NCBI GenBank assembly: GCA_020432165.1
Contig: JAGQGU010000003.1
Location: 4,357 to 68,356 of the forward strand
DNA: 64,000 nucleotides
Direction of reading: 5' to 3'
Origin: Thermomicrobiales bacterium
GTDB taxonomy: Bacteria; Chloroflexota; Chloroflexia; Thermomicrobiales; UBA6265
The first letter of the stretch is position 1. Every line of letters begins with the position of its first letter. The notes beneath the pieces are model-generated. The model did no database searches. It was not told where the DNA came from and saw only the letters and a program-made list of their open reading frames with translations. Positions 2,835 through 16,093 of this stretch are shown here, piece by piece. A program made the translations under genes and the position numbers.

Positions 2835-4193
2835 TTACGACACGTTATCCAGCGGCGAGATGTACTTAACATCACCGCGACGTTCGATGAAATCCGCGCG
2901 AGCGGCAGCGCGCAACTCAGCATCCGTCATGAGGTCATAGCCCATACGCGCCATGATTTTGGCGGCGCCGTCAACAGCCTTGCTGCCAATGGACATACCG
3001 CCGCAGGCGGTGACCGGCCAGGTATGCATACTGACCCCTTGTGGCACCGATGGGTACCAGAACCATATCAAGGGAACGCACCAGCTGACATCACCGAGGT
3101 CGCTGCTACCACCCTGCACCGACGGCGGCGAGATCGGCCTGACGTCGGTGGCCATTCCCTCCTCGGGAACACCGAAGTTGCGTTGGCAGTCACGTGCGAA
3201 CGCCTGCTCTGCCTCCGTCCATTGGGGAGCACCAACCTCCATCATGTGTTTGTAGCAATTCTCGACCAGCGGAGTATTGTTGATCGTCTCGCTCATCCCG
3301 TAGGGCACGTGAAACTCGGCTCGAGTCTGCGTGCCCATCGCAGCACCCTCAGCCAACGCCCGCGCCCAGGTGGTCAACGCTTCGACACCTGCACGATCCT
3401 TGTCCCGGAGGTACATATACAGACGCGTATAGTCCGGCACAATATTCGGAGCGCTACCTCCAGCCTGAATCACATAGTGCATGCGGACGGAGGTCGGCAC
3501 ATGTTCGCGCATGAGGTTGATGCCATGCATGAAGAGTTCCAGTGCATCGAGCGCGCTACGGCCCTCCCATGGACTCCCGCCGGCATGGGCGGTTTTGCCA
3601 TGGAACTCGACCACCACATCACTCATGGCTGATGTGGAGACGTATCCAGTGCCCGCATACGTTTGTGGATGCCAGGCGATACAGACATCGATATCATCAA
3701 AGTAGCCATCGCGCACCATGTAGACCTTGGCACCCGAGGTCTCTTCAGCGGCGCATCCATACACTCGCACCAGGCCAGGAATGCCCTCCATCTCCATGGT
3801 GAACTTCAGAGCAATAGCGGCACCTGTGCAGGCGGCACCCAACAGATTGTGGCCACAGCCATGGCCGCTGGTTTTGCCATTAGGAGCAGCGACCTGCTCT
3901 CCCGATGCAGCGTTACCGAGATCCGGCAGGGCATCGTACTCCGGCAGGAAGCCGATGCGGGCTCCGCCTTCCCCTTGCTCCCATTCCGCGATGAAGGCTG
4001 TCGGGCGACCGCTGGTACCAACACTGGTGATCGTGAATCCGGCCGCTTCCAGTTCCCGCATATGGACTTTGGCCGATTCCGATTCCTCGTTGGAGATCTC
4101 GGCAAGCATCCAGACTTCCTTGTTGATGCTTTCCATCGCCTCGCCAGTACGATCGACGGACAGGTCTATGGTTGCGTAGTCCCGCGTTGTCAT
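2835..4193 (-). CDS. M20 family amidohydrolase, AbgB-like, copy 2 (tandem paralogue)
   Basis: 452 aa, collinear with the 1442-2800 product and identical at most positions by eye (DLSVDRTGEAMESINKEVWMLAE.SNEESESAKVH). Confidence 0.8.
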   Translation of the reverse strand: MTTRDYATIDLSVDRTGEAMESINKEVWMLAEISNEESESAKVHMRELEAAGFTITSVGTSGRPTAFIAEWEQGEGGARIGFLPEYDALPDLGNAASGEQVAAPNGKTSGHGCGHNLLGAACTGAAIALKFTMEMEGIPGLVRVYGCAAEETSGAKVYMVRDGYFDDIDVCIAWHPQTYAGTGYVSTSAMSDVVVEFHGKTAHAGGSPWEGRSALDALELFMHGINLMREHVPTSVRMHYVIQAGGSAPNIVPDYTRLYMYLRDKDRAGVEALTTWARALAEGAAMGTQTRAEFHVPYGMSETINNTPLVENCYKHMMEVGAPQWTEAEQAFARDCQRNFGVPEEGMATDVRPISPPSVQGGSSDLGDVSWCVPLIWFWYPSVPQGVSMHTWPVTACGGMSIGSKAVDGAAKIMARMGYDLMTDAELRAAARADFIERRGDVKYISPLDNVS

Positions 4194-4326
4194 TCCTCAC
4201 TCCACCTCCGGATCAAATGTCTATCACTCTGGATACGTTACCCCACCTCGCAGAACTTGGGTATCCACATCTCCTCACTCGCGGTACCATGCTTCAAAGA
4301 ACCGGTTCGACATTCCAGCATGAGAA

Positions 4327-5799
4327 ATGGGAGCTACCATGACCGATACAGCCACAATTCAGACAGAACAACTGATCATCGCGGGGCAACGCGTCAATGC
4401 GATCGATGGCGAGACATTCGATGTCATCAATCCTGCTACCGACCAGGTGATTGCCCGAGTCGCCAAGGCAGGCCTCCCCGATGTCGAGGCGGCCGTCGCT
4501 GCGGCCCGCAAAGCATTCGATGAAGGTCCGTGGCCGCGCATGGCACCGTATGAGCGCGGACGCATCATCCAGAAGATCGCAGATCGCATCCGGGAGCGCG
4601 CCGATGAGCTCGCCGCCGTGGAGAGTGCTAACACGGGCAAGCCTATGGCACGAGCCAAAGGCGAGATCCTCAGCGGTGCGGTCGTCTTCGATTACTACGC
4701 CGGGGCTGGTGACAAGTTCTTCGGCGAATCAATTCCCCTGGGCGACAAGGTGCTGGATGTCACGTTGCGCGAGCCGGTGGGTGTGGCAGCGCAAATCGTC
4801 CCCTGGAACTTCCCCTTCAGCATGGCGACCTGGAAAGTCGGTCCCGCATTGGCTGCTGGCTGCTGCGTCATCCTCAAACCTGCCAGCCTGACACCGCTAA
4901 CGGCGTTGCTGCTTGGGGAGATCTGCTACGAAGCCGGCGTACCCGAGGGCGTGGTCAATGTGCTACCGGGTCCTGGTGGACTCATTGGAGAGGCCCTCTC
5001 CGCACATCCGCTGGTCGACAAGGTGGCATTCACCGGTGAGACGACAACTGGAGCCGCCATCTTGAGAGCCGCCTCTGACACGATCAAGAAGGTCTCGCTG
5101 GAGTTGGGTGGCAAGAGCCCGAATATCGTCTTTGCGGATGCGGATTTGGCGAAGGCAGCCGCATCGGCGGTACCGGCTGGATTCGGCAACAGTGGTCAGA
5201 CCTGCACGGCACGCACACGCGTTTTCGTGAGCAATAGCGATCACGATAACTTCCTGCAGCAGCTGGTCGATCACACCGCGCGATATAGCGTTGGTGACCC
5301 CACCGCAGCTGGTGTGCAGATGGGTCCGCTTATCTCACAGGCGCAGAAAGATCGGGTCAATAACTACGTGCAGATCGGGAAGGATGAGGGAGCGGAGCTC
5401 GCTTACGGCGGGATGACACCCGCAGATCAGCCGGTGGGAGCATTCCTGCAGCCGACGATTTTCGGTGCGGTCAGCAACGATATGCGCATTGCCCGCGAGG
5501 AGATCTTTGGCCCGGTTATCTCTGTGATCCCGTTCAAGGATGAAGCGGATGTTATCCGGGAGGCCAACGCCAACGATTACGGTCTGGCTGGCTCGGTATG
5601 GACACGCGATATCGGACGTGCGCTCCGCGTGGCCAAGGGCTTGCGGACAGGCATGGTCGCGATCAACTCAAACGGTGGCGCAGGTGTGTTTGGACCGTTT
5701 GGCGGCTACAAGCACAGCGGCCTTGGACGAGAGCTGGGCATGCATGGCCTGGAACTCTACACCGAGGTCAAGAACATTTACATCGATCTGGAGGATTAG
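4327..5799 (+). CDS. NAD(P)-dependent aldehyde dehydrogenase
   Basis: 490 aa with ALDH motifs ([24 protein letters not shown]). The alternative ATG at 4339 has a better GGGAG Shine-Dalgarno. Confidence 0.9.
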
Positions 5800-5825
5800 T
5801 CGGACACCAGTAAGGCTCACACCAC

Positions 5826-5851
5826 GTAGGGGCGCATCTCGAAGCGAATGC
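5826..5851 (+). repeat. REP-like element (GTAG head plus hairpin)
   Basis: GTAGGGGC followed by GCATcTCG-AAG-CGAATGC hairpin, in the intergenic gap between convergent genes. Confidence 0.45.
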
Positions 5852-5879
5852 TGAGAGTATGTGCCCGAAATGAGCGCGC

Positions 5880-7085
5880 CTAAACCACAAATCCGGGCTC
5901 CTGGCGCTTCACCAGTCGCACCAGGGCCAGTAAACACACCGAAGCGGCGAGACTCAGGACGATACTGAGTACCAGTGCGGTGTTGGCGCCTTGCCGCTCC
6001 AGAATTCTCGCGAAGATCGGCGGCGCGGCTGCGAAGGAGAGATTCAACGGTAGCGCCAGTCTTGCCGATGCGCGCGCGTATGCTTGTGGTGGGAACATCG
6101 TCAATGGCAAAGTCGCGCGCACGATCGACATGAGACCGCCTGCCAATCCATAGAGCAGGACGAAAGTTGCCGCCACCACAACCGAACCCCCCAGATAGAG
6201 CAGGATGAACGAGAAGAGCATGGTGGAAGTCGAAGCGATTGCGGATCGCAACGGCGACCAATTGCCCAGCACATCAATCGACCGAGCGGCTATCGAGATC
6301 AGTCCGATCAGCGATGCCAGTGTCACCGCCTGACTATTTTCCAGCCCCTTTTGTGTCAAAAGCGGAATAAGCGTGAGTGAGAATCCCCAGGTGATGAAAC
6401 CATTGAGGGCGGTCACACCTGCAACCAGCATGAAGCGGATCGGATCCAGACGCTGTTGATCCGTTGATTTGGCATCATCAGTAATCTCCCGAGTACGCGG
6501 CGATTTTGCTGCGGCCACAGCTACCAGCGGCATATAGATCAGCAACATCGATACCGCTAAAAGCGCAGTAACGGTGCGCCAACCGGCAGCGCCATCGATA
6601 CGCGAGACAATTGGCCAGAGGATTGTGTTGGAGAGACCGCTTACAAGCGAAAGCGCACTGATCGCCTGACGGGCACGGTCATCGAAGACCTCCGCTAACG
6701 CGATCTGGGCAGCAGTCGAAAGAGATGCGGCTCCACCGATGCCGAAGAGCAGCCACACCGCAAGGAAGAGATAGACAGATTGAGCGAAAGTGATCGCCAG
6801 CAGTCCGACTGTCATCACGATCGCGCCGCCGAGCATCATCTTACGCGCACCAATGCGCTCGAAGAGTGGCGCTGTCCACCAGGAGACGATGGCGAGCATG
6901 GTCAGCATCACCGTCGGTCCGAGCAGAATCACATCCAGCGAGGCGTCGAATGTATTGGCGATGGAGGTGCCGATCACCCCCGTCAGATTGAACGTTGCAC
7001 CCCAGCCGATGATCTGACAGATGCCGATGGCAAGCACAGTAGGTGCCATTCTGCGGGCGGGTTGGGTTGTCGCCGTCATTGCCAC
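5880..7085 (-). CDS. MFS transporter
   Basis: 401 aa, about 12 hydrophobic segments, MFS-like loop composition. Confidence 0.8.
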   Translation of the reverse strand: MAMTATTQPARRMAPTVLAIGICQIIGWGATFNLTGVIGTSIANTFDASLDVILLGPTVMLTMLAIVSWWTAPLFERIGARKMMLGGAIVMTVGLLAITFAQSVYLFLAVWLLFGIGGAASLSTAAQIALAEVFDDRARQAISALSLVSGLSNTILWPIVSRIDGAAGWRTVTALLAVSMLLIYMPLVAVAAAKSPRTREITDDAKSTDQQRLDPIRFMLVAGVTALNGFITWGFSLTLIPLLTQKGLENSQAVTLASLIGLISIAARSIDVLGNWSPLRSAIASTSTMLFSFILLYLGGSVVVAATFVLLYGLAGGLMSIVRATLPLTMFPPQAYARASARLALPLNLSFAAAPPIFARILERQGANTALVLSIVLSLAASVCLLALVRLVKRQEPGFVV

Positions 7086-7188
7086 CTCAATCGATCCAAC
7101 GTATCAATTACCAGAACGCATGATCTAGCGCTGCTGGTAGCTTACACCGAAGGATGAATACCGGGTAGGGGTATATGGAGATTGAGAG

Positions 7189-7677
7189 CTATGAAAGCCC
7201 GATGGCCCGGCCGACAGCCCTCACAACATCCAGCCAGAACTGACCGCCGAGTAGAACGATCCCGGCAAAACTGGCGGCAATGACCACAGCATCAATGCTC
7301 TGTCGCCCCTGTTTGGCCCAGTAGACATCCTTCAGGTGCAACCAGAGCGCGAACTCGTCTAGCGTGAGGGCGGCTCCAATCCCGTACATAATCGCGATGA
7401 AATCCCGGCGATGATTCGGAGCAAGACCGATACCCAGATAGCCACTCAGCAGAAGCAGGAGAATACCTGGAACGAGATGATGGAGGTGGGTACCGCCCGG
7501 ACCCTTCACGTTGTGGAAGATGTGCGTGAAACGTCCAGCGCGAATGGAGTGGGTTATGAATCTCACCAGGAGGAATGTCAACAGAAAAGAGACCAGAATT
7601 AACGCCTGCGGCTGTTTGTGTGCATCCAGGATATTGCGCTGATAGGACTCAGCGATATCGTTGAGGAGTCGATGCAC
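7189..7677 (-). CDS. Hypothetical integral membrane protein
   Basis: Hydrophobic segments are present. The track ORF extends to 7758, but that N-terminus overlaps the tRNA-His fragment. The in-frame GTG at 7677 preceded by GGAAG is the more plausible start. Confidence 0.55.
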   Translation of the reverse strand: MHRLLNDIAESYQRNILDAHKQPQALILVSFLLTFLLVRFITHSIRAGRFTHIFHNVKGPGGTHLHHLVPGILLLLLSGYLGIGLAPNHRRDFIAIMYGIGAALTLDEFALWLHLKDVYWAKQGRQSIDAVVIAASFAGIVLLGGQFWLDVVRAVGRAIGLS

Positions 7678-7688
7678 GGCGCTACTTC

Positions 7689-7761
7689 CAATATCCTTGA
7701 TTCTATGGGTTTTTCGGGGGTACCTACCGGGTTTCGAACCCGGAACCTCTTGTTCCACAGA
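7689..7761 (-). repeat. attL: 73-bp direct repeat containing the displaced 3' part of tRNA-His (anticodon loop to acceptor end)
   Basis: Matches 14451-14525 apart from one 2-nt indel and one substitution. The 45-bp core 7717-7761 is identical to 14481-14525. The fragment ends ...GGTACCCCC, so it encodes no CCA. Confidence 0.9.
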
Positions 7762-7861
7762 AAAGAGCTTAGGTGTTTCCCCGTGCTACCCCGTATCGAG
7801 ACGCGTTGATGAAAACCCCATATCCATAGGACTTCTTGAGATTCCGTGCTCCGAAATGCCG

Positions 7862-7908
7862 TATAATTCTGTGTAGTGGCGTGTCGTCCACACGCCACAC
7901 ACACGCCA
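7862..7908 (+). promoter_or_regulatory. Candidate int promoter -10 plus ACACGCCAC operator/arm-type sites
   Basis: TATAAT at 7862-7867. Perfect inverted repeat GTGGCGTGT-N5-ACACGCCAC at 7876-7898, plus an 8/9 direct copy at 7901-7908, directly upstream of the int ATG at 7920. Confidence 0.5.
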
Positions 7909-7919
7909 AGGGAGCTAGC

Positions 7920-9278
7920 ATGGCAGTCCAACCACGATACGCGTTTACGACGAACATTGAGACCGGCAAACGTGAGCCGGTATACGAAGTCGATAAATCT
8001 GGAGCAATCAAACTGGACAAGGACGGGAATCCGATACGAAAAGTCCTGAACTGGAAAGTAGAAGTGTACGATACCGACCCAGTGACCGGGAAGCAGAAGC
8101 GAAAGGTCATTGGAACCTTTCCAGCTAAGGGCGGGAAGGATGAAGCAAAGGCTGCTGACGTTGCTGCCAAGGCGGCAATTCGAAAAGGGTCCTTCCAGTG
8201 GGACGATCCGGAACCAGAGCCAGAGCCAGCACCGATTCCGACGGTGCAGCAAGCGTGCGAGCAATGGATAGCGGCAAAACGGGTTGAGACCAATAAATGG
8301 GGGCGTCCCCTCTCTGACAATCACATAGCAGGGTACGAATCCAGCCTGAAGATTCATGTTGGTCCAGCATTCGGAGACAAACTCGTCACCGAGGTGACCA
8401 CAAAAGGGATACAAGCCGTTGTTCAGGACTGGCTCACTGCGGTGGAAGGCGAGAGGAAGGCAAAGCACGCCCAAACGGTACGAAGGGCGATGATTGTGCT
8501 CCGTGGTGCGCTCGAAATGCAATTGATTGATGACGATGGCATCGGGTTCCTCAGTCGCAATCCTGCCGCAGATAGAAAGCTGATACTACCGAAAGTCGCC
8601 AAACAGAAGCAAGTTGTGAAGCCACTAGACGAAAAGCAAATGGATAAGTTCCTAGAGGAAGCTGAGTCCCATCCGTGGTTTGCCGCGTGGTTGCTGGCGG
8701 AAGTTGACGGTCTACGCCGTGCTGAGATTCTTGGAGGGCAATGGACTGACACACGTGGGGTAGATGATCCTGATGCACCGATCATATGGAGTGTCGGGCA
8801 AACATGCGTCGCGGATCAGCGCAATGGAGGCCGTCCGAAAATCCAGCCAAACCCCAAAACCGAAGGGTCTCGAAGGGAAATCCGTCTGAGCGCCATGTCA
8901 TCGCAGGCGTTGCGACGCCACCACGACAAGCAAGCGTTTCAACGCAAGTCCGCTGGTGCCGAATGGATAGACAATGGCCTGATATTCTGTAATGAGGTTG
9001 GTGAACCAATACGTCCGGATTCGTTTAGCGTTCAGACCAAGAAGATGCTGGATAGCCTGGGATTCGGCAATTTGGGGCCACACAAGCTAAGGCACCACGC
9101 AGCAGGGCGAATGCTACGGAATGGCGTGCCTATCGCGCTTGCAGCGGAGAAGCTGGGTCACTCTGACGTGTCTCTGACCTACGCAACCTATGGAAATCTG
9201 GACGAAAGCTCACAGGAACCAGTGAACTCAGCTATTGATCGCGTGCTCGATAAAGTTGGGACCAGGCATTCAGGTTAG
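7920..9278 (+). CDS. int: Tyrosine-type site-specific integrase
   Basis: C-terminal catalytic region HKLRHHAAGRML...LGHSDVSLTYATYGNL (H-x-x-R ... Y). N-terminal arm-type and SAM-like regions. ATG 7920 follows AAGGGAG; the track ORF start at 7836 is probably too long. Confidence 0.9.
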   Translation: MAVQPRYAFTTNIETGKREPVYEVDKSGAIKLDKDGNPIRKVLNWKVEVYDTDPVTGKQKRKVIGTFPAKGGKDEAKAADVAAKAAIRKGSFQWDDPEPEPEPAPIPTVQQACEQWIAAKRVETNKWGRPLSDNHIAGYESSLKIHVGPAFGDKLVTEVTTKGIQAVVQDWLTAVEGERKAKHAQTVRRAMIVLRGALEMQLIDDDGIGFLSRNPAADRKLILPKVAKQKQVVKPLDEKQMDKFLEEAESHPWFAAWLLAEVDGLRRAEILGGQWTDTRGVDDPDAPIIWSVGQTCVADQRNGGRPKIQPNPKTEGSRREIRLSAMSSQALRRHHDKQAFQRKSAGAEWIDNGLIFCNEVGEPIRPDSFSVQTKKMLDSLGFGNLGPHKLRHHAAGRMLRNGVPIALAAEKLGHSDVSLTYATYGNLDESSQEPVNSAIDRVLDKVGTRHSG

Positions 9279-9381
9279 CAGCGAACAGCGCATTAGTGAC
9301 CGCTCTTCAGTTTGCAGGAATCCAGCCTGACTGACCAACTGGATCACTTTACCTATAGTATACTTTGCGTATTATCGCCCT

Positions 9382-9408
9382 TTGTCATGCTGACTACTAT
9401 GGTATAAT
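9382..9408 (+). promoter_or_regulatory. Candidate sigma70-type promoter with extended -10
   Basis: TTGTCA (9382-9387), 15-nt spacer, TGgTATAAT (-10 at 9403-9408), in an AT-rich intergenic region. Confidence 0.4.
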
Positions 9409-9500
9409 CCTTGGTAAGGTGAGTTTGTACTTAGTTAGGCTATCACAATGCGAGTACATAAGTACCGGCTTGGACCGGACATAATTCAACACCTAGAGCC

Positions 9501-9531
9501 AGACCCGTTGCGCAAGCAGCGGGTCTTTCTT
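9501..9531 (+). terminator. Intrinsic terminator or attenuator hairpin upstream of xis
   Basis: AGACCCGTTGC-GCAA-GCAGCGGGTCT (11-bp stem, GNRA loop) followed by TTCTT, 33 nt before the xis ATG. Confidence 0.6.
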
Positions 9532-9563
9532 ATGCACGCTCATTCGTGTATTGGAGACGAACG

Positions 9564-9782
9564 ATGAACAGCACTCCAGAACTGATGAACGCTGAAGAGT
9601 TCCGAGTCCGACTTGGCATCGGTCGATCTCTGTTTTACGAGCAGGCGCGTACCGGAGGTCTACCAGTCCCGACACTGCGGATCGGCAGACGAATGTTTTT
9701 CAGCCGTCCGGCATTCGAGCGCGTGCTGGCCGGAGATATCGACCGCGTTCCGGGGTCACCAGAAGCGGACTGTAGCAACTAG
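9564..9782 (+). CDS. xis: Excisionase-family / MerR-like HTH DNA-binding protein
   Basis: MNSTPELMNAEEFRVRLGIGRSLFYEQARTGGLPVPTLRIGRRMFFSRPAFERVL matches the excisionase-type HTH pattern. GGAGA Shine-Dalgarno before ATG 9564. Confidence 0.75.
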   Translation: MNSTPELMNAEEFRVRLGIGRSLFYEQARTGGLPVPTLRIGRRMFFSRPAFERVLAGDIDRVPGSPEADCSN

Positions 9783-9840
9783 ACGAAATTGACGACGCCT
9801 CCCATATGCGACCGGGAGGCGTCAATCGAAGAGTGATATC

Positions 9841-11211
9841 ATGACATCCAAACTAATTATACCTCAGATTCCTGTGCATCTTCAGGGGACATTCACGTCG
9901 TTACCCACAGGCCCTCATTCGCCGCAGGCATTGGCCGCGATAGGGTTGGCATCGGCCAGATGGCAGATAGTTCCGCTCCTGATCAATGAAAAGAGGATTG
10001 ACGCCAGTACCGGCTTCCGTCACGGGCGGAAGCCCCACATCCCCACTCGTGAGGAAGTTATCGATCTCTGGATGCAAGAACCTGATCGGAATGTCGGGAT
10101 TGTTCCTTCCCCCGGCACGATCTGCGTTGACCTTGATAGCAAACATGGTGCCGACCTGAGCACATTGGATGCCTTGGGCCTGACCCATGAAACGTTGACT
10201 GAACGCTCACGTTCAGGCGGGTATCACTGCTGGTATCAATTGCCGCGAGGTTTCCGAGCATCGAAGTCCAGTACTGGCAACAGGCGATTGCCCTCGGGTG
10301 TCGATTTGCTATCCAGTTCAAGCCTTGTAGTCTCGCCTTGGTCACAGATTGATGGTAGTTGGTATCGCTACGATACCGATATCTGGACGATGGCGCGGAT
10401 ACCGGGCGATTGGCCGTGGCTTGATTTACTAGAGGACTCTGAAGCCATCCGGTTTGGCCGCATAACCCGTTCAGATCGGGAAGCGGCACGTAGGTTGCGT
10501 CATCGTCTACTAGAGCGCTCCGAGTTTCGACCTCGACTCAAAGGGCTGTTCGGCAAGAATTGGCAGACTGCGCTCACGGCATTAACCCCTACATCATCCG
10601 GCCAAAGTGAGAGTCATCGAGACTTCGCCTTTGCATTCTGCGCGACGCACTTTCTTCGCGACAATCCGCGTGCTCCACAGATTCTCGTGGCGTTGCTGTT
10701 GGATACGGGCTGGCCACAATCACGGTTTCGGGAACATCCGAAATCCGACCCGAACCAATACGCTCGCTCTGTCGTACGTCGCGCCATATCCGCTCGGACG
10801 GATAAGGACCTCGCTCGTCTCGAGGCTCTCTCCGACCGGTATGGTCTGGTACATACGGGTCTCGCTCACCAGACGCGCACTCCGTGCTATCTGGCTTCGC
10901 CAGACCCTGATGCCGCAAGCCTCGATATAGGGGTGGGAGGAAAGCCGACAAATGTGGAGATCATCGCAGATGTGATAGGTATGTTTGGGATCAAAGTGCA
11001 GGCGTTTGGTGATACGGAGTTCCTGAGGTCAGACGGTTACATACGGGTGCCTTGCGGGGATATAGCCAAGATTTGCGAAGTCAGCCCAGACACGGTTACA
11101 AGGGCGCTCAAGTTGGGTGAGCAGAGAGGGTGGTGGGTACGTTCCTCTGAACGGTATCGTCATGATGGTGCTCCACGGTGTGACTCGCTGGTGAAGATGG
11201 TACGAACGTAA
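9841..11211 (+). CDS. Bifunctional primase-polymerase (PrimPol) replicase with PriCT-like middle region and C-terminal wHTH
   Basis: The N-terminal region has a Prim-Pol pattern (VGIVPSPGTICVDLDSKHG ... RSGGYHCWY). The middle SESHRDFAFAFCATHF is PriCT-like. The C-terminus IAKICEVSPDTVTRALKLGEQRGWW is HTH-like. No Walker A helicase motif was seen. Confidence 0.8.
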   Translation: MTSKLIIPQIPVHLQGTFTSLPTGPHSPQALAAIGLASARWQIVPLLINEKRIDASTGFRHGRKPHIPTREEVIDLWMQEPDRNVGIVPSPGTICVDLDSKHGADLSTLDALGLTHETLTERSRSGGYHCWYQLPRGFRASKSSTGNRRLPSGVDLLSSSSLVVSPWSQIDGSWYRYDTDIWTMARIPGDWPWLDLLEDSEAIRFGRITRSDREAARRLRHRLLERSEFRPRLKGLFGKNWQTALTALTPTSSGQSESHRDFAFAFCATHFLRDNPRAPQILVALLLDTGWPQSRFREHPKSDPNQYARSVVRRAISARTDKDLARLEALSDRYGLVHTGLAHQTRTPCYLASPDPDAASLDIGVGGKPTNVEIIADVIGMFGIKVQAFGDTEFLRSDGYIRVPCGDIAKICEVSPDTVTRALKLGEQRGWWVRSSERYRHDGAPRCDSLVKMVRT

Positions 11212-11240
11212 GTTGCATCAGCATCGACTGGTTACTCATT

Positions 11241-11277
11241 CTGAACAACGTTCATCACATCTCTGAACGTTGTTCAG
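11241..11277. promoter_or_regulatory. Perfect 14-bp inverted repeat built from two TGAAC-N3-GTTCA palindromes
   Basis: CTGAACAACGTTCA (11241-11254), 9-nt spacer, TGAACGTTGTTCAG (11264-11277). Lies 30 nt downstream of the PrimPol stop with no T-tract after it. Confidence 0.5.
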
Positions 11278-11674
11278 GATAGATAGCACCGCCATGCTTC
11301 GAGGCCCGTCGTCATACACGCACCAATATGGAATGCACGGAGCCAGGTGACAGGATTGGATAAACGTGTACTACGCGCGTACCTGCGGCTCCCTGATCAC
11401 GATCAACGATTAAGGAACCGAGAGGCAGATAGGAGATGCTCAGGCATACGTACTCCCTCTCGGCACGAATGTGCGCACCTCCGAGGGGGGGTAGTCCATA
11501 TTCTCAGATAAGGCATCGAACCTCATATCGGAGGGTTGCCTCAGAATTTCGGGTGAATTTCCGATTTACTGTCAGACATCAACCTATCTCGCGAGCGACT
11601 CGCAGTACGTGTGATTCTGGGCAACTCCCGCTCCGATGGATCTGAACTGATCACTATATGTTGATAATCTGTCC

Positions 11675-12166
11675 TTATTCTCCAACTTCGTGCCAACCGG
11701 CAGGTACGATGAATGGCTCGTTCGCAACGAACGCCTCCACTATCTGGTCCGCTATATCGCGGTCGGTGGCTGTCCCCCACATCACATAGCCATTGCCGGT
11801 GCAGAAGAAAACCTGGATACCTACGTTCATCGGCCCCGAAAAGATGAACATCCGGCATCCCGCGGCGGTCTCTGTCTCGCCGATCAGCGGATACCCCACC
11901 TGCACAGCAAGATCGTCTGCGTCCACACTGGCGATGATCTCGGCATTGGTGCCGTCATCGGCCGCTATCTCAAAATTGACATAGTCCCAAGACGTCTCAC
12001 CTTCAATCTTCCAGGCTCCTGGTTGAATGCCCGTCTCCACAACTTCGGTTGCCAATATCTTTGAGCCGCTTCGCGAGGTGCGGGTGACCTCATCGCCATT
12101 TCCACCGAACACAGCCAGCATCACTGCGAGTACCAGAGCGCCAATGATTTGTCCCAAGTCTTCCAT
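11675..12166 (-). CDS. Hypothetical N-terminally membrane-anchored protein
   Basis: 163 aa with a single N-terminal hydrophobic helix (IIGALVLAVMLAVFGG). GAGGTGA Shine-Dalgarno upstream of ATG 12166. No family recognised. Confidence 0.6.
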   Translation of the reverse strand: MEDLGQIIGALVLAVMLAVFGGNGDEVTRTSRSGSKILATEVVETGIQPGAWKIEGETSWDYVNFEIAADDGTNAEIIASVDADDLAVQVGYPLIGETETAAGCRMFIFSGPMNVGIQVFFCTGNGYVMWGTATDRDIADQIVEAFVANEPFIVPAGWHEVGE

Positions 12167-12225
12167 GTCTCACCTCACGAACAATGAACATGCCTCGCGG
12201 CTGTCTTTATCTGCCGTTCCCATAT

Positions 12226-12248
12226 CTTAATGGAATTCCTCTATTAAG
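12226..12248. promoter_or_regulatory. Candidate operator in the divergent 163-aa/XRE intergenic region
   Basis: CTTAAT-GGAATTCC-TCT-ATTAAG inverted repeat. Confidence 0.3.
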
Positions 12249-12279
12249 GGAAATCCCACGTTCACTCCAGACTTCGCAT

Positions 12280-12573
12280 ATGAATGGGGCTCGTGACGAT
12301 GGAACCGGTCGAATACGGGAAAATGCTTTCGGGAATCTCGTATCCCGTCAGGATAGACAGAGGCTAGGTGCTCTTCTGCGCTCACTTCGTGAAGATGCTG
12401 GTCTCAAGCAAGGCGAGCTTTCCGAGAGAATCGGGATCGCACAACGCACTTTGTCGCGTATTGAGTACGGCGACCGTGAGGTCACCGTGCTGGAGTTGCT
12501 GGTTATCGCACGGGGACTCAATGTTTCTGCTGAATCGATAGTCACCCAGCTTAAGACCATGATCGATAGATGA
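12280..12573 (+). CDS. XRE-family HTH transcriptional regulator
   Basis: LRSLREDAGLKQGELSERIGIAQRTLSRIEYGDREVTVLELLVIARGL is a classic XRE HTH. The track start at 12184 would leave only 17 bp to the divergent gene, so the in-frame ATG at 12280 is preferred. The start remains uncertain. Confidence 0.7.
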   Translation: MNGARDDGTGRIRENAFGNLVSRQDRQRLGALLRSLREDAGLKQGELSERIGIAQRTLSRIEYGDREVTVLELLVIARGLNVSAESIVTQLKTMIDR

Positions 12574-12575
12574 GA

Positions 12576-12932
12576 TCAATACATGCGCGGATGCTCACCG
12601 CGCATACGCTGACCAGCGACCAGTTCTAGACGTCCGTCCGCAGTTATCCACACTTGGAGGATGGCGGTACCACGAGGGGTCAGATCGCCACGTATCGAGC
12701 CTATACAGAGCCGGTGGTTCTGGGTAGCCGATTCCTCAGCCAAACGCGCGACAGAGTGCGATGACGTACCCACAGATGCATACGGATACGCTCGCCGAAT
12801 CTCAGCACTTCCAGCTGCTATGAGAGCCGGTGCATGGTGCTTTATCCATGCGATGTATTGTTTGGCACGCTCGATTCCGATCTTTCCCGGTGGCGGTGGC
12901 CAATCTGGTAAGCGTTCCGTGGTTGCAAGCAT
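12576..12932 (-). CDS. Hypothetical protein, ERLPDWPP-motif family, paralogue A (translationally coupled to SRAP)
   Basis: 118 aa. Its start ATG overlaps the SRAP stop (TAATG at 12930-12934). Alignable along its length with the 13797-14216 product. Confidence 0.7.
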   Translation of the reverse strand: MLATTERLPDWPPPPGKIGIERAKQYIAWIKHHAPALIAAGSAEIRRAYPYASVGTSSHSVARLAEESATQNHRLCIGSIRGDLTPRGTAILQVWITADGRLELVAGQRMRGEHPRMY

Positions 12933-13654
12933 TAGGATATCTCCAATAGTGAGGCTTGCCGAACTTCAGGGACGGGTTTGATTAGCTCAGCATCATTGTT
13001 ACGGACATCGTTAACACGGCCACTGACGGGCCAAAATTCCAACTTGTCTGTTGGATATGGACTCAATAACGGGCGAATAAGCATCAGGTCACGAACGCTC
13101 CGGGAAAGCCACATGTCTACATTCTGCGGTTGAATGATGACCGGCATCCTGTCGTGAATATGGGCGATGCTCTCAGCAGGTGTGGTGGTGATCAGGCTGT
13201 ATGAGGCCTCGATTTCCCCGGACTGATTGAGCCAGGCATCGTAGATACCCGCAAGCAGAGAGATAGGGTCATCGATTAGCCGGATGTAGTATGGAACCCT
13301 TCTTGAGCCTTGCTTTTGCCATTCGTAATACCCAGATGTTGGAACTAAGCAGCGACGGGATGCGAGTAGACCGCGGAACGTTGGTAGGTCTTCGATGGTT
13401 TCAGCACGCGCGTTACTTGGCTTGTGGTGATGCGGTTTGCTCCAGGATCGCGACAATCCCCAACGCATAAGGCGTGGTTCGATAAGTCCGTCTCGATTCT
13501 CCACTAACACGAATTGGCTCATACCGGGTGCATGGTTGAAACTGGTTGTCATTGTGGCCATGATGCGTTCAAAATTCGCGACAAGTCTCGATGTTTGAGG
13601 CATCTCCTTTGCAACCTCTAGATCGTCATCGAATCGTCGTAGCCGCCCACACAT
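12932..13654 (-). CDS. SOS-response-associated peptidase (SRAP / YedK / HMCES family)
   Basis: Begins MCGR (catalytic Cys2). Conserved NARAET, GYYEW and HDRMPVI motifs are all present. The track ORF to 14146 is an upstream read-through of the same frame. Confidence 0.85.
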   Translation of the reverse strand: MCGRLRRFDDDLEVAKEMPQTSRLVANFERIMATMTTSFNHAPGMSQFVLVENRDGLIEPRLMRWGLSRSWSKPHHHKPSNARAETIEDLPTFRGLLASRRCLVPTSGYYEWQKQGSRRVPYYIRLIDDPISLLAGIYDAWLNQSGEIEASYSLITTTPAESIAHIHDRMPVIIQPQNVDMWLSRSVRDLMLIRPLLSPYPTDKLEFWPVSGRVNDVRNNDAELIKPVPEVRQASLLEIS

Positions 13655-13694
13655 CGCCATTCTCCATTCCAGAAGCCGAGCATCTAGTACTTGC

Positions 13695-13724
13695 ACTATA
13701 CAGAACATATGTTCTATTATGCAA
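13695..13724 (-). promoter_or_regulatory. SRAP promoter with embedded LexA-type SOS box
   Basis: Minus strand: TTGCAT (13724-13719), 18-nt spacer, TATAGT (13700-13695). The spacer contains the perfect palindrome AGAACATATGTTCT (13702-13715), which is GAAC-N4-GTTC. Confidence 0.6.
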
Positions 13725-13796
13725 TCAGAGGCCCCGAGTGTAAAAGCGCCTGAGGCCCTTCTATCGATTCGATGGTGGGGATAGAGTGGTGCTGAT

Positions 13797-14216
13797 ATGA
13801 AAGAGCGATTGCCTGACTGGCCGCCTGTCGATTTGGAGCTTATCGGTGAAGCGCGGGCGCGAGCATATGTTGATTGGATGCGCGCGCACATCGCACCCGT
13901 GATTGATCGCGCCAAGACTGATCTACGTCGCCAGTATGGTGATGATGTCGTCCTGACCACTGAGTCGATGAGTGTCGATACGCTGGCCGCGACTGTGTAC
14001 AACCGTATGGGGCCGCATTTCATCATCGGAAGCGTAAAGGCCGATATGGGCAAAGCGCGACCGGCAGAAATCTTTGTTGTGATCCAACCAGACGGTACCA
14101 TCGACCTCATGCCTGTCTGGCTCCCATTCACAGAAGCGAACCTCATGGATGATCTGCTGGCTAGCCTGGCCGAGCAGCAGGCCCATTCAGCAGACCAGGA
14201 TCAAAGCAATGAATGA
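13797..14216 (+). CDS. Hypothetical protein, ERLPDWPP-motif family, paralogue B (acidic C-terminal tail)
   Basis: 139 aa. Shares ERLPDWPP, W..H..P.I....RR.Y, IGS and DG..L blocks with the 12576-12932 product. Divergent from SRAP across the LexA-box promoter. Confidence 0.7.
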   Translation: MKERLPDWPPVDLELIGEARARAYVDWMRAHIAPVIDRAKTDLRRQYGDDVVLTTESMSVDTLAATVYNRMGPHFIIGSVKADMGKARPAEIFVVIQPDGTIDLMPVWLPFTEANLMDDLLASLAEQQAHSADQDQSNE

Positions 14217-14392
14217 AGGCTACCCATCCACCAGTCTCACGACGATTGGATTCCCATCTGTGACTGGTAAGTGATCTACTGCGCGAGATGTCCTGAGTTG
14301 CAGGAGGATGGCTGAGAAGGTGTTTTCAGGGTGGTTGGTGAGGTGTTTATGCATCCAAATCTCGACCTATATCTGACTGTGTCGAAATTCTC

Positions 14393-14412
14393 ACACGCCA
14401 CTCACACGCCAC
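14393..14412 (+). promoter_or_regulatory. Two direct ACACGCCAC copies near attR (candidate integrase arm-type sites)
   Basis: ACACGCCAC at 14393-14401 and 14404-14412 (11-bp phasing), the same 9-mer as at 7876-7908. Confidence 0.45.
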
Positions 14413-14423
14413 AGACCACACAA

Positions 14424-14449
14424 CGCAAAAGCCGCTAACTGCTAGCGGC
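14424..14449 (-). terminator. Element-supplied terminator downstream of tRNA-His
   Basis: Minus strand: GCCGCTA-GCAGT-TAGCGGC hairpin followed by TTTTGCG. Confidence 0.6.
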
Positions 14450-14450
14450 T

Positions 14451-14525
14451 CAATATCCTTGATTCTATAAGGGTTTTTCTGGGGTACCTACCGGGTTTCG
14501 AACCCGGAACCTCTTGTTCCACAGA
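14451..14525 (-). repeat. attR: 75-bp direct repeat overlapping the 3' part of the intact tRNA-His
   Basis: Partner of 7689-7761. It extends about 29 bp beyond the tRNA 3' end. Confidence 0.9.
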
Positions 14526-14555
14526 CAAGCGCTCTGCCGTTGAGCTATAGGTACC
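14480..14555 (-). tRNA. tRNA-His (anticodon GUG) with encoded G-1 and CCA
   Basis: Hand-folded cloverleaf: G-1, GTACCTA/TAGGTAC acceptor, GCTC/GAGC D stem, CTTGT-CTGTGGA-ACAAG anticodon arm, CCGGG-TTCGAAA-CCCGG T arm, discriminator C, CCA. 76 nt. Confidence 0.92.
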
Positions 14556-14568
14556 ATGTTCACGTAAA

Positions 14569-14910
14569 CGAGAAGGAGGTGTAAGCCGAGTTCTGTTCTA
14601 TATGGTCATCTCTCTCAATCCTGAGGACTGGTCACATCGTCGCCTCTGTGACGGCTCTCGACTTCCGGCCTTGGCGAGCAGCCTGCTGGCGGCCGAATCG
14701 GAGATTGCTGCGGGGAGGATTGCCCTTTTCACTCCGCGTTACCGCGGCTTCGTCTCTGTTGCTCTCACATGCTTGCGCATGTGCCAATCTGGACTGTCGA
14801 CCCGGTTACCCGAGCCTCCCTGGCTTTCACCAGGCACCCTTGCTCTCTGCAGCCCGGACTTTCCTCTGGTGACTTGCGATCACCAGCGACCATTCCCTTG
14901 CTTCCCGAAA
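14569..14910 (-). ncRNA. rnpB: RNase P RNA, bacterial type A
   Basis: Minus strand contains the universally conserved AGAGGAAAGTCCGGGCTGCAGAG (P4 5' strand), GCAACAGAGA, GGTAACGCGGAGTGAAAAGGG and ACAGAACTCGGCTTA (P4 3' strand). P1 (CGGGAAG..GGG / CCT..CTTCTCG), P2 (ATGGTC/GACCAT) and P3 (CTGGTGA-TCGCAAG-TCACCAG) can be paired by hand. Ends are approximate. Confidence 0.85.
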
Positions 14911-14919
14911 ACGTTCACA

Positions 14920-14948
14920 TTTAAAGGTGCGTTACTCACAAGGAGCAA
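14920..14948 (-). promoter_or_regulatory. Candidate rnpB promoter
   Basis: Minus strand: TTGCTC, 17 nt, TTTAAA, about 8-12 nt upstream of the proposed P1 5' strand. Confidence 0.35.
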
Positions 14949-15010
14949 CCTGCGGTCTCCCGACCGCGCGAGTAACTATAGCACAGTCACCAGCACCGTC
15001 CTAGCCCTCG

Positions 15011-16093
15011 TCAGGAGAGCAGTGCCCCAAGTCCGATCAGCGCCAGCAATCCACCAATTGGCACAATATGCCACCACTTATACATGACCATGATCGCGAT
15101 AATCTCACGGATGATGGCACTGGGAAGGTAATAGCGCGCAGTGCGACACCCCACGCCCTGCGCCTTCAGTCCCACCCTTCGAGAAATCAACGCAGTCCGG
15201 AAAACATGGTAGTTATTGGTCACAAAAACAACCTTGGATCCCTTGCCACCGCCACGGCGGGCGATGATGAATTGGCTGTTACGCATATTCTCGTCCGTAT
15301 CCGCCGATTGATCCTCAGGCACGATCAGTTCCGCCGGAATATCGTGTGCGAGGAGGTATTCGGACATCGCGCACGCCTCGGATCGCGGCTCGTCCTCCCC
15401 CTGACCACCGGAGGGGATGATAGTTGCGCGCTCCCCGCCCTTGCGCCATACCTCGATCGCTTTATCCAACCTCCGCGCCAGCAGCGGGGGTACTTCGCCT
15501 GCGATCAATCCCGATCCATGCACGATCACGAAATCGGGATCGCGCTCCTTCGGCATGGCCGTGTAGAGCCAGCCGTATACAATGGTGACGTAGGCATTTC
15601 CCAGGAAGTAGAGATAAGCAGCAGAGATCACGGAAACCAGTAGCATCAGCCATTCGGCAAGGCGATGCTGGGCATATGCCGTCATCACCAGCCCGATGAG
15701 GCTTGCAGCGACCAAAAGAAACGGGATCGCACCGACAACCGGTGCCAACATATGCCCCAGCGATATCCCCTCGCGCCGGGCCATCGTTCGTCCGTTCCAG
15801 ATAAGCGCCACGGATCCGATCAGATAGATCAACGGGAATCCAACAAAGGGGATCAGAATCAGAATGGCATAAAGCCAATCCGCCTCGAGTCGGTAAAAGG
15901 CAATCTCCACGATACCGAGATAACCAAATGCCAATGCCAGGCCAAAGATGCCAGCATTGAAGAGCGATCGCGGCTCTATCTTCCAGAGAATGATGAGGAA
16001 GACGAAGAGTATGGCGGAGATGTAGAGGAAGGGCGTCAATGGTACTCCTGCAGAACGTGCATCTATCTGCAGGAAGCATAATCCCGGCATCAT
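15011..16093 (-). CDS. YdcF/SanA/ElyC-family (DUF218) membrane protein
   Basis: N-terminal polytopic region plus a C-terminal DUF218-like domain (FVIVHGSG..., IIPSGGQG, FVTNNYHVFR). An alternative TTG start at 16039 follows AGGAG. Confidence 0.75.
   Translation of the reverse strand: MMPGLCFLQIDARSAGVPLTPFLYISAILFVFLIILWKIEPRSLFNAGIFGLALAFGYLGIVEIAFYRLEADWLYAILILIPFVGFPLIYLIGSVALIWNGRTMARREGISLGHMLAPVVGAIPFLLVAASLIGLVMTAYAQHRLAEWLMLLVSVISAAYLYFLGNAYVTIVYGWLYTAMPKERDPDFVIVHGSGLIAGEVPPLLARRLDKAIEVWRKGGERATIIPSGGQGEDEPRSEACAMSEYLLAHDIPAELIVPEDQSADTDENMRNSQFIIARRGGGKGSKVVFVTNNYHVFRTALISRRVGLKAQGVGCRTARYYLPSAIIREIIAIMVMYKWWHIVPIGGLLALIGLGALLS

Follow-up and report, generated by a model that had tools for sequence, protein, structure and literature searches.

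A compact mobile element in the tRNA-His gene of a Thermomicrobiales bacterium, a probable member of a satellite-like family

The stretch of DNA analyzed here, 64,000 nucleotides of contig JAGQGU010000003.1 (the window throughout), holds an island of ~6.8 kb with eight genes in a tRNA-His gene. We have almost no doubt that this island, which we call the window element, is a site-specifically integrated mobile element, and its genes indicate that it can probably integrate, excise, and copy itself. ARAGORN and Rfam for the tRNA, the flanking repeats, and profile scans together bear out the reading of an earlier note on this stretch, namely a compact integrative element in tRNA-His with an integrase gene (int), an Xis-like gene, a replicase, and no transfer or virion genes. 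As its host we identify a Thermomicrobiales metagenome-assembled genome (MAG), from the NCBI proteins MCA9832673-77 and from the MFS gene in the flank, the nearest relatives of which belong to Thermomicrobiales/Chloroflexota MAGs. With a host in the Chloroflexota (Thermomicrobiales) and not of actinomycete type, a framing around actinomycete integrative and conjugative elements (AICE) and TraB is moot.

ARAGORN finds a single tRNA gene in the window, tRNA-His(GTG) at 14480-14554 on the minus strand, and Rfam agrees at 67 bits. This gene, with G-1 and CCA encoded, is intact and is the integration target. Direct repeats at 7689-7769 and 14451-14533, both read on the minus strand, align over 83 columns with 94% identity and one 2-nt indel, and they share a perfect 45-nt core (7717-7761 = 14481-14525) that spans the anticodon loop to the penultimate tRNA base. 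The earlier lengths of 73 and 75 bp were roughly right: the repeats measure 81 and 83 nt, and the end placed at 14525 is that of the perfect core. The int-proximal attachment (att) repeat is made up of the displaced 3' portion of tRNA-His together with 28 nt of downstream sequence. Its final bases (..CACAGAAAAGAGCT) are element-derived and bring a mismatch into the anticodon stem, so this copy is not a tRNA; CACAGAAAAGA of the same repeat also adjoins int in the related elements L039, L042, and L144 (labels in L denote the contigs and loci compared). The tRNA-proximal repeat bears the family-conserved CCTTGATTCTATAGGGTTTT at 14451-14480. With blastn of related contigs against the window, only these two copies are found in 64 kb, which shows that the repeats are not a dispersed family and upholds their reading as att sites. 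Overall, the layout is that of tRNA-integrating tyrosine-recombinase elements: one end has the whole tRNA, the opposite end has the displaced 3' fragment, and the identity begins in the anticodon loop and extends toward the 3' end. G+C content is 52-55% within the element versus 57-59% in the flanks.

Gene calls were those attached to identical metagenome contigs, and their products were scanned against four profile libraries. The first gene encodes a tyrosine integrase of 452 residues (7920-9278, plus strand; Phage_integrase, E = 3.5e-13; phrog_1, E = 7e-47) in which the catalytic residues R267, K313, H388, R391, H414, and Y424 are all present. Behind it lies a 285-nt int-xis spacer (9279-9563, plus strand) with promoter-like hexamers of sigma-70 type at 9331-9375, TGGTATAAT at ~9400, and an 11-bp hairpin at 9501-9526. 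The spacer folds with a z-score of -2.7, and a hairpin with a T-run stands at the same position in relatives, as judged by eye on an alignment. The small RNA or attenuator proposed here thus retains its hexamers and its structure and gains no family, since the spacer has no match in Rfam; we regard the spacer as a candidate int terminator or a candidate leader/attenuator of the xis-rep operon. The next gene encodes a 72-residue Xis/AlpA-like HTH_17 protein (9564-9782, plus strand). Its assignment is weak on its own score (HTH_17, E = 9e-4, below the Pfam cut-off) and is backed by homologs with 35-48% identity that do score HTH_17, the genes located after int in L040, L041, L042, L054, and L144.

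The third gene of the left half encodes a PrimPol-type replicase of 456 residues (9841-11211, plus strand; Prim-Pol, E = 2.8e-14) with an archaeo-eukaryotic primase (AEP) domain (DxD at 97-99, SGGYH at ~125-129, and D155) and a conserved middle region. It had been described as a PrimPol-PriCT-wHTH protein; the PrimPol part stands, the C-terminal winged helix-turn-helix (wHTH) is weak (HVO_A0261_N, E = 4e-3), and PriCT goes undetected even at E = 10. A 463-nt noncoding stretch (11212-11674) follows and contains, directly after the PrimPol stop, a 17-nt inverted repeat (11238-11280) whose arms are 94% complementary and each almost palindromic. We infer here a candidate terminator, origin, or packaging signal. 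A terminase remnant in this gap was considered and ruled out, as profile hidden Markov models (HMMs) found none.

The right half begins with u163, a protein of 163 residues (11675-12166, minus strand). It had been called a membrane-anchored unknown, and its N-terminal hydrophobic helix is indeed present, with nothing else recognizable. We found no homologs of u163, and its AlphaFold2 (AF2) model is unusable (predicted local distance difference test score, pLDDT, 49). The idea that it is an inverted copy of the ~160-residue protein found in related elements was rejected, as the two show no similarity. Next comes an XRE-family HTH regulator (12184-12573, plus strand; HTH_3, E = 4.5e-13), a candidate repressor that is 62% identical in amino acid sequence to the XRE protein of L054 and whose start may be an internal Met at ~12280. 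Beyond it stand u118 (12576-12932, minus strand), a member of what we term the LPDWPP small-protein family, then an SRAP protein of YedK/HMCES type with 240 residues (12932-13654, minus strand; PF02586, E = 1e-56; phrog_1599), and then u139 (13797-14216, plus strand), a second LPDWPP-family paralog that is 36% identical to u118 (E = 5e-14). The SRAP domain is full length (PF02586 positions 1-214 of 214), with the MCGR start and its Cys2 and with the HDRMP motif intact. The integrase, XRE, and SRAP identities assigned earlier are all confirmed by the Pfam and PHROGs matches. By contrast with these, u118, u139, and u163 have no match in Pfam, PHROGs, NCBIfam, or PADLOC. The AF2 model of u139 reaches a pLDDT of 84, and a Foldseek search of PDB and BFVD gave best matches of E at least 0.3, hence no significant structural neighbor. 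About ten proteins of the tiny LPDWPP family were found; one of them, P0016 (110 residues), lies between the integrase and lysis genes of a full prophage (L048, 6182-8333) from the same sample series as L042. Among the products of the window element, none of the profile libraries detected a terminase, capsid, portal, relaxase, or FtsK-type domain. All eight genes look intact and, to judge from the catalytic residues in place, functional.

The search for related int/PrimPol pairs that had been suggested for this element yielded seven further elements of about 5.9 to 10.6 kb, found through the integrase and PrimPol plus one via u118; among the eight, host taxonomy is established for the window's MAG alone. 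Two are bounded by a tRNA-His fragment at both ends, L038 (6593 nt) and L042 (6616 nt, in 6 samples). L144 (Logan SRR25400516, 5836 nt) begins in a tRNA-His fragment and ends in an arm motif just short of the tRNA, and in L039/L040 and in L041 (each >8 kb) a tRNA-His fragment adjoins int. The remaining two are an element of ~10.6 kb in tRNA-Arg(TCG), assembled from L054 (1-9729) and L143 (1-1130; Logan SRR8351384), and L037, which spans at least 5.6 kb with its ends not seen. Integrase searches returned five relatives at 45-52% identity, and across the family the window integrase shows 43-52%, the Xis-like protein 35-48%, and PrimPol 47-55%. Only two PrimPol relatives, at 55% and 47% identity, exist in an index of 5.8 billion proteins, and an exhaustive search of 1.84 billion cluster representatives gave 12 hits at E<=1e-30; this PrimPol family is rare. 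PrimPol found nothing among phage sequences and one 27% fragment among plasmids, and its alignment had no matches in IMG/VR and the JGI metagenomes. The integrase alignment retrieved distant integrases only from JGI and IMG/VR, and no related int or PrimPol was found in 50,697 phage genomes or in IMG/VR.

The shared gene order runs int, HTH_17, replicase, small genes, a ~160-residue protein, Terminase_6N (~250 residues), a Terminase_6C-type protein (~250 residues), and small genes. A related int beside the displaced tRNA fragment, then HTH_17 and a replicase, defines the family, and the window element shows all of these. In every element with att evidence, int adjoins the displaced fragment and reads inward, so that what had been taken for the less common polarity is the constant polarity of the family. 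Replicases vary: PrimPol in the window element, L037, and L038, a distant 447-residue form in L040, AAA_25 in L042, and HTH_36 in L054 and L144. The trio of the ~160-residue protein, a large-terminase (TerL) ATPase, and a TerL nuclease is encoded by six of the eight elements (L037, L038, L039/L040, L041, L042, and L054+L143), with the window element and L144 as those without it. The missing terminase noted earlier is therefore confirmed for the window element, but it is an exception within the family. HMMs for the trio, built from six members, gave nothing better than E = 0.16 in the six frames of 7600-14600, and L144 came up without the trio in an HMM search in which positive controls score 1e-70 to 1e-136. 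L144 retains the "180-residue" and "99-residue" family genes, which in other members lie on either side of the trio. By gene content, the trio is absent twice among eight elements, on different replicase backgrounds, and its absence from L144 is independent.

The two terminase halves match phrog_7579 (E = 2.7e-54) and phrog_27743 (E = 2.6e-23), and by these matches the terminase of the family is genuinely of phage type, encoded as two separate genes. Its nearest relatives in named phages, at 40% identity, are from Thermus phage Riverbug and Meiothermus phages MMP7 and MMP17, one of them annotated "terminase, ATPase subunit." The same split pair occurs in L063 (IMGVR_UViG_3300033066_000970; 2984-12113) with 44% amino acid identity, followed there by portal, maturation protease, and major head protein genes. 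From this gene order, L063 may serve as a model for the phage type from which the family terminase came, and it is a possible helper type. We scanned the region after the terminase directly in L038 and L042 and by precomputed Pfam marks in the other loci. The bounded 6.6-kb elements have no head, portal, or tail family after the terminase, just small ORFs (open reading frames) and the att site. An integrase, an excisionase, a replicase, and a terminase without particle genes are the expected profile of phage satellites. The satellite-like character proposed earlier for the window element gains from these relatives, which share a related int, xis, or PrimPol and carry a split phage terminase, with no portal or capsid gene in the bounded 6.6-kb copies.

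A second connection among these elements is an exchangeable cargo cassette. The stretch u118-SRAP-u139 (12582-14334) is 93-95% identical in nucleotide sequence to the far end of the L054+L143 element, yet the two elements have integrases with only 43% identity, unrelated replicases, and different target tRNAs (tRNA-His vs tRNA-Arg). In that element the far end reads XRE, u118, SRAP, u139, alongside the terminase trio. Such identity between elements with diverged integrases points to a recent exchange of the cassette. The codon differences comprise seven synonymous and no nonsynonymous changes in SRAP relative to L054/L143, 16 and two in u118 relative to L054, and nine and nine in u139 relative to the L054+L143 copy; the synonymous excess in SRAP and u118 therefore indicates purifying selection on both. 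SRAP genes have been seen in temperate phages, where the protein was proposed as a damage sensor for induction, a role never tested (PMC3765255). The cassette thus offers an example of exchange in which SRAP and two unknown paralogs occur across elements with different integrases, replicases, and tRNA targets. Other cargo is found at the far end of L041 (15960-17353), where SMODS and SLATT genes form a CBASS-like set (cyclic oligonucleotide-based antiphage signaling system). Both L039 and L041 are followed by a gene for an N6/N4 methyltransferase-Mrr fusion, which may be the host's or the element's.

The ends of the window element carry features that recur in the family. The int-proximal attP arm (7812-7898) has an inverted TATrGGGTTTT copy at 7812-7822 and two inverted CACGCCAC motifs, at 7876-7883 (minus) and 7891-7898 (plus), which form a 9-bp hairpin immediately before the int start. 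The far attP arm (14394-14451) has two direct CACGCCAC copies at 14394-14412 with a spacing of 11 bp. In the whole window, CACGCCAC matches nine times against 3.4 expected, and four of the nine lie within the two arms. Short motif pairs thus stand on both arms, one pair just 5' of the start codon of int, the second at a distance of 40-60 nt from the core. The 11-bp spacing recurs in L042 and L054/L143 as in the window's far arm, whereas the window's int-proximal arm has the inverted pair instead. The motif itself changes from element to element: the window and L042 have CACGCCAC, L054/L143 has ACGCCGACA, and L144 has a ATGCAGCGC segment that is repeated. The arm motifs appear to vary with the integrase, as expected for arm-type sites, and are candidate integrase arm sites.

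CCTTGATTCTATAGGGTTTT adjoins the 3' end of the tRNA in the window, L042, L143, and L144, despite the different tRNA in L143, and paired arm motifs together with TATAGGGTTTT beside the tRNA 3' end are a further family trait that the window element displays. A motif of the CCTTGATTCTATAGGGTTTT type is present in both window repeats, including on the presumed host side, where 7689-7716 carries CCTTGATTCTATGGGTTTTT; this suggests, from the motif, the footprint of an earlier occupant of tRNA-His. The segment 14428-14451, some 30 nt beyond the tRNA, forms a 9-bp hairpin and then a U-rich run when taken on the minus strand. Hairpins of 9-13 bp with a U-rich tail stand ~30 nt past the tRNA in the window, L042, and L144, and the hairpin is likely a terminator brought by the element.

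The occupancy of the site was followed in other assemblies. Thirteen metagenome contigs from several assemblies carry the locus at 99.98-100% nucleotide identity to the window, and all of them hold the element. A look-up with the flanking 162-residue protein reached six contigs, all occupied or broken inside the element, and a look-up with DUF218 using its 360-residue start found nothing. A genome scan by the MFS flank reached relatives at 70-72% only. In the closest GTDB species (L012 and L013, Thermomicrobiales/Chloroflexota MAGs), DUF218 adjoins MFS, with no rnpB, tRNA-His, or 162-residue gene between, and because of this different gene order these species are uninformative about an empty site. 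L004 (6779 nt) and L042 (6616 nt) were considered as circles and rejected, their terminal overlaps of ~15 nt being a k=31 graph break at the 45-nt exact repeat.

Among the published systems closest to the window element is the phage-inducible chromosomal minimalist island (PICMI), which has three core genes (int, alpA, and a primase), lacks homologs of terS, sid, and ppi, and seems to need for its mobilization only a DNA motif that directs packaging into helper particles (PMC10803314, PMC11389934). The two share a size of ~6 kb, a core of integrase, AlpA/Xis-type HTH protein, and primase-type replicase, and accessory or defense cargo (PMC10803314). The window element is likewise without terS, capsid-remodeling, and virion genes, a functional resemblance compared by description only. 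PICMIs differ in that they occupy a site next to fis in Vibrionaceae, whereas the window element lies in tRNA-His of a member of the Chloroflexota and has a PrimPol-wHTH replicase of a rare family. PICMIs are also induced and transduced by a virulent helper phage, whereas the window element is known from its genes alone. With another host, another site, and a comparison by description only, the window element cannot be called a PICMI.

In phage-inducible chromosomal islands (PICIs), the core set comprises int, a regulator (alpA/merR/stl), a primase-replicase, a capsid-morphogenesis gene, and terS, and that of the capsid-forming PICIs (cfPICIs) comprises a capsid, a protease, a head-tail adaptor and connector, terS, and terL (PMC10085698). 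The window element has the first three of the five PICI genes, with no match for terS or a capsid gene in Pfam or PHROGs, and none of the cfPICI genes (Pfam, PHROGs, and the trio HMMs). By these published core sets, it is neither a PICI nor a cfPICI (PMC10085698). It resembles both in its left half of int, alpA-like regulator, and primase-replicase, in its small size, and in cargo at the far end. PICIs have TerS and usually a capsid-morphogenesis gene, and cfPICIs have TerL with a capsid, portal-side connectors, and a protease; the family described here differs from both in combining a split TerL and its ~160-residue partner with no capsid gene, and all of these genes are absent from the window element.

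Tycheposons, as well as VEIMEs (virion-encapsidated integrative mobile elements), integrate in tRNA genes, use primase/PrimPol-type replicases, and bear variable cargo. Passages in two sources present them as proposed satellite families of marine bacteria with small genomes and helper dependence, the tycheposons with distinct tyrosine recombinases and the VEIMEs with packaging of concatemeric genomes (PMC12822802, PMC11389934). They differ from the window element, again compared by description only, in that their hosts are marine cyanobacteria and heterotrophs. AICEs of the pSAM2 type in actinomycetes integrate in tRNA genes with an int-xis-rep backbone, and some use Prim-Pol replicases. These are defined by FtsK-like TraB transfer, which the window element lacks; they belong to another host phylum, and the relatives found here carry phage terminases instead. 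Neither an FtsK/SpoIIIE-type TraB domain nor a relaxase that would pair with an origin of transfer (oriT) was found in the eight products, the signature by which AICEs and integrative mobilizable elements (IMEs) are recognized. Dehalococcoides IME1 (bioRxiv 10.64898/2026.09.15.751708) was set aside as a different kind of element, 21-28 kb in size and filamentous-virus-like. A full-text literature search turned up no phage satellite described for the Chloroflexota, and this family of small elements resembling phage parasites is apparently undescribed.

From the gene content of its relatives, the window element very likely belongs to a satellite-like family. By analogy, we favor with moderate confidence a reading of the window element itself as a terminase-less, satellite-like hitcher, integrated and replicative, that would work like a PICMI. 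The first step can be read directly from the repeats: the integrase recombined an attP running from the tRNA anticodon loop to the 3' end with tRNA-His, so that the 3' part of the rebuilt tRNA and the terminator hairpin are element-derived. Conservation in the family suggests that the paired 8-9-nt motifs on the attP arms would be the arm sites of the integrase and that the HTH_17 protein would direct excision. The excised circle would then be replicated, to go by the domain it contains, by the PrimPol-wHTH protein. More speculatively, the XRE protein might keep the element silent, and SRAP, as a sensor of abasic sites on single-stranded DNA, might couple DNA damage to induction or protect the replicating DNA. 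Spread would occur through a helper phage or a terminase-encoding sibling that recognizes a packaging signal on the element, as in PICMI, failing which the copy would be stranded. In gene content, the family would stand as a further type between PICI and cfPICI, with its own split large terminase and no capsid genes. It would also supply natural pairs with and without the terminase on one backbone, a handle on the minimal functions of a hitcher and on satellite-on-satellite parasitism.

Several observations weigh against this interpretation. Among the 13 contigs with the locus we found neither a circular junction nor an empty attB nor strain polymorphism, no helper phage or phage structural gene lies in the 64-kb window, and no packaging signal was identified on the window element. 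The satellite nature of the family is read from gene content, in eight elements only, most of them on short contigs, and for L039 and L041 a second att site is not seen within 10 kb. The two terminase-less copies could also represent two deletions en route to decay.

That last point leads to the strongest alternative, in which the window element is a stranded remnant whose packaging module was lost by deletion or module replacement from a terminase-encoding ancestor and which persists as a fixed, non-transmissible island by vertical descent and through its cargo, perhaps still able to excise and replicate. The trio in six of the eight members makes its absence a derived state, the element is present and essentially identical in every host contig from several samples, and outside the core 5 of 83 positions already distinguish the two att copies. 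The core itself remains perfect, however, the eight genes are all intact and retain their catalytic residues, and the six frames searched contain no pseudogene debris of the trio. The recent cassette exchange with a very different element argues that the lineage has been in genetic contact with active relatives, and the second terminase-less element, L144, keeps the genes on either side of the missing trio. We consider a stranded remnant possible but rather doubtful. A bolder extension of the hitcher reading is that the window element and L144 are second-order parasites packaged by the split terminase of sibling elements, that these siblings form an undescribed Chloroflexota satellite family with its own TerL that borrows helper capsids, and that u118-SRAP-u139 is traded cargo that senses DNA damage for induction or counters an abasic-site-based defense; we offer this as a tentative and improbable proposal.

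Two further explanations are unlikely. An IME or integrated plasmid that borrows the conjugation apparatus of an integrative and conjugative element or a plasmid, much like an AICE minus tra, would account for the int-xis-rep backbone, which AICE and IME elements also have, and for the absence of virion genes, but the lack of relaxase, FtsK/TraB, and coupling-protein domains in all eight products and of any identified oriT-like feature, together with same-backbone relatives that bear phage terminases rather than transfer genes, makes it highly improbable and counts against the IME alternative raised before. Just as improbable is a prophage remnant, left when a full-size temperate prophage underwent a large internal deletion but retained its two att sites: integrase, XRE, and SRAP families are common in prophages and an LPDWPP homolog lies beside the integrase of a real one, but the closest relatives with both ends visible measure only 5.9-6.6 kb, and no related int or PrimPol was found in the phage genomes or IMG/VR.

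The RNase P RNA gene (rnpB, class A; 14566-14906, minus strand) is the immediate upstream neighbor of tRNA-His on that strand, with 94 bits (E = 3e-28) over the full-length model against a gathering score of 100. Because the RNase P RNA is there, the 161-residue ORF that metagenome annotations place at 14602-15087 is spurious. The small low-GC island beside rnpB and tRNA-His is now accounted for in the annotation of this genome. In two independent assemblies, contigs L008 and L010 stop at the same base, 7897, within the GTGGCGTGT-cgtcc-ACACGCCAC hairpin (7876-7898) before int, and in one of these two broken assemblies contig L002 begins 111 nt further on, at 8009. The break could come from a coverage drop at a structured site or from local variation. 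Elsewhere in the window, two tandem paralogs of the M20 peptidase family (1478-2791 and 2871-4184) are 76.6% identical in nucleotide sequence.

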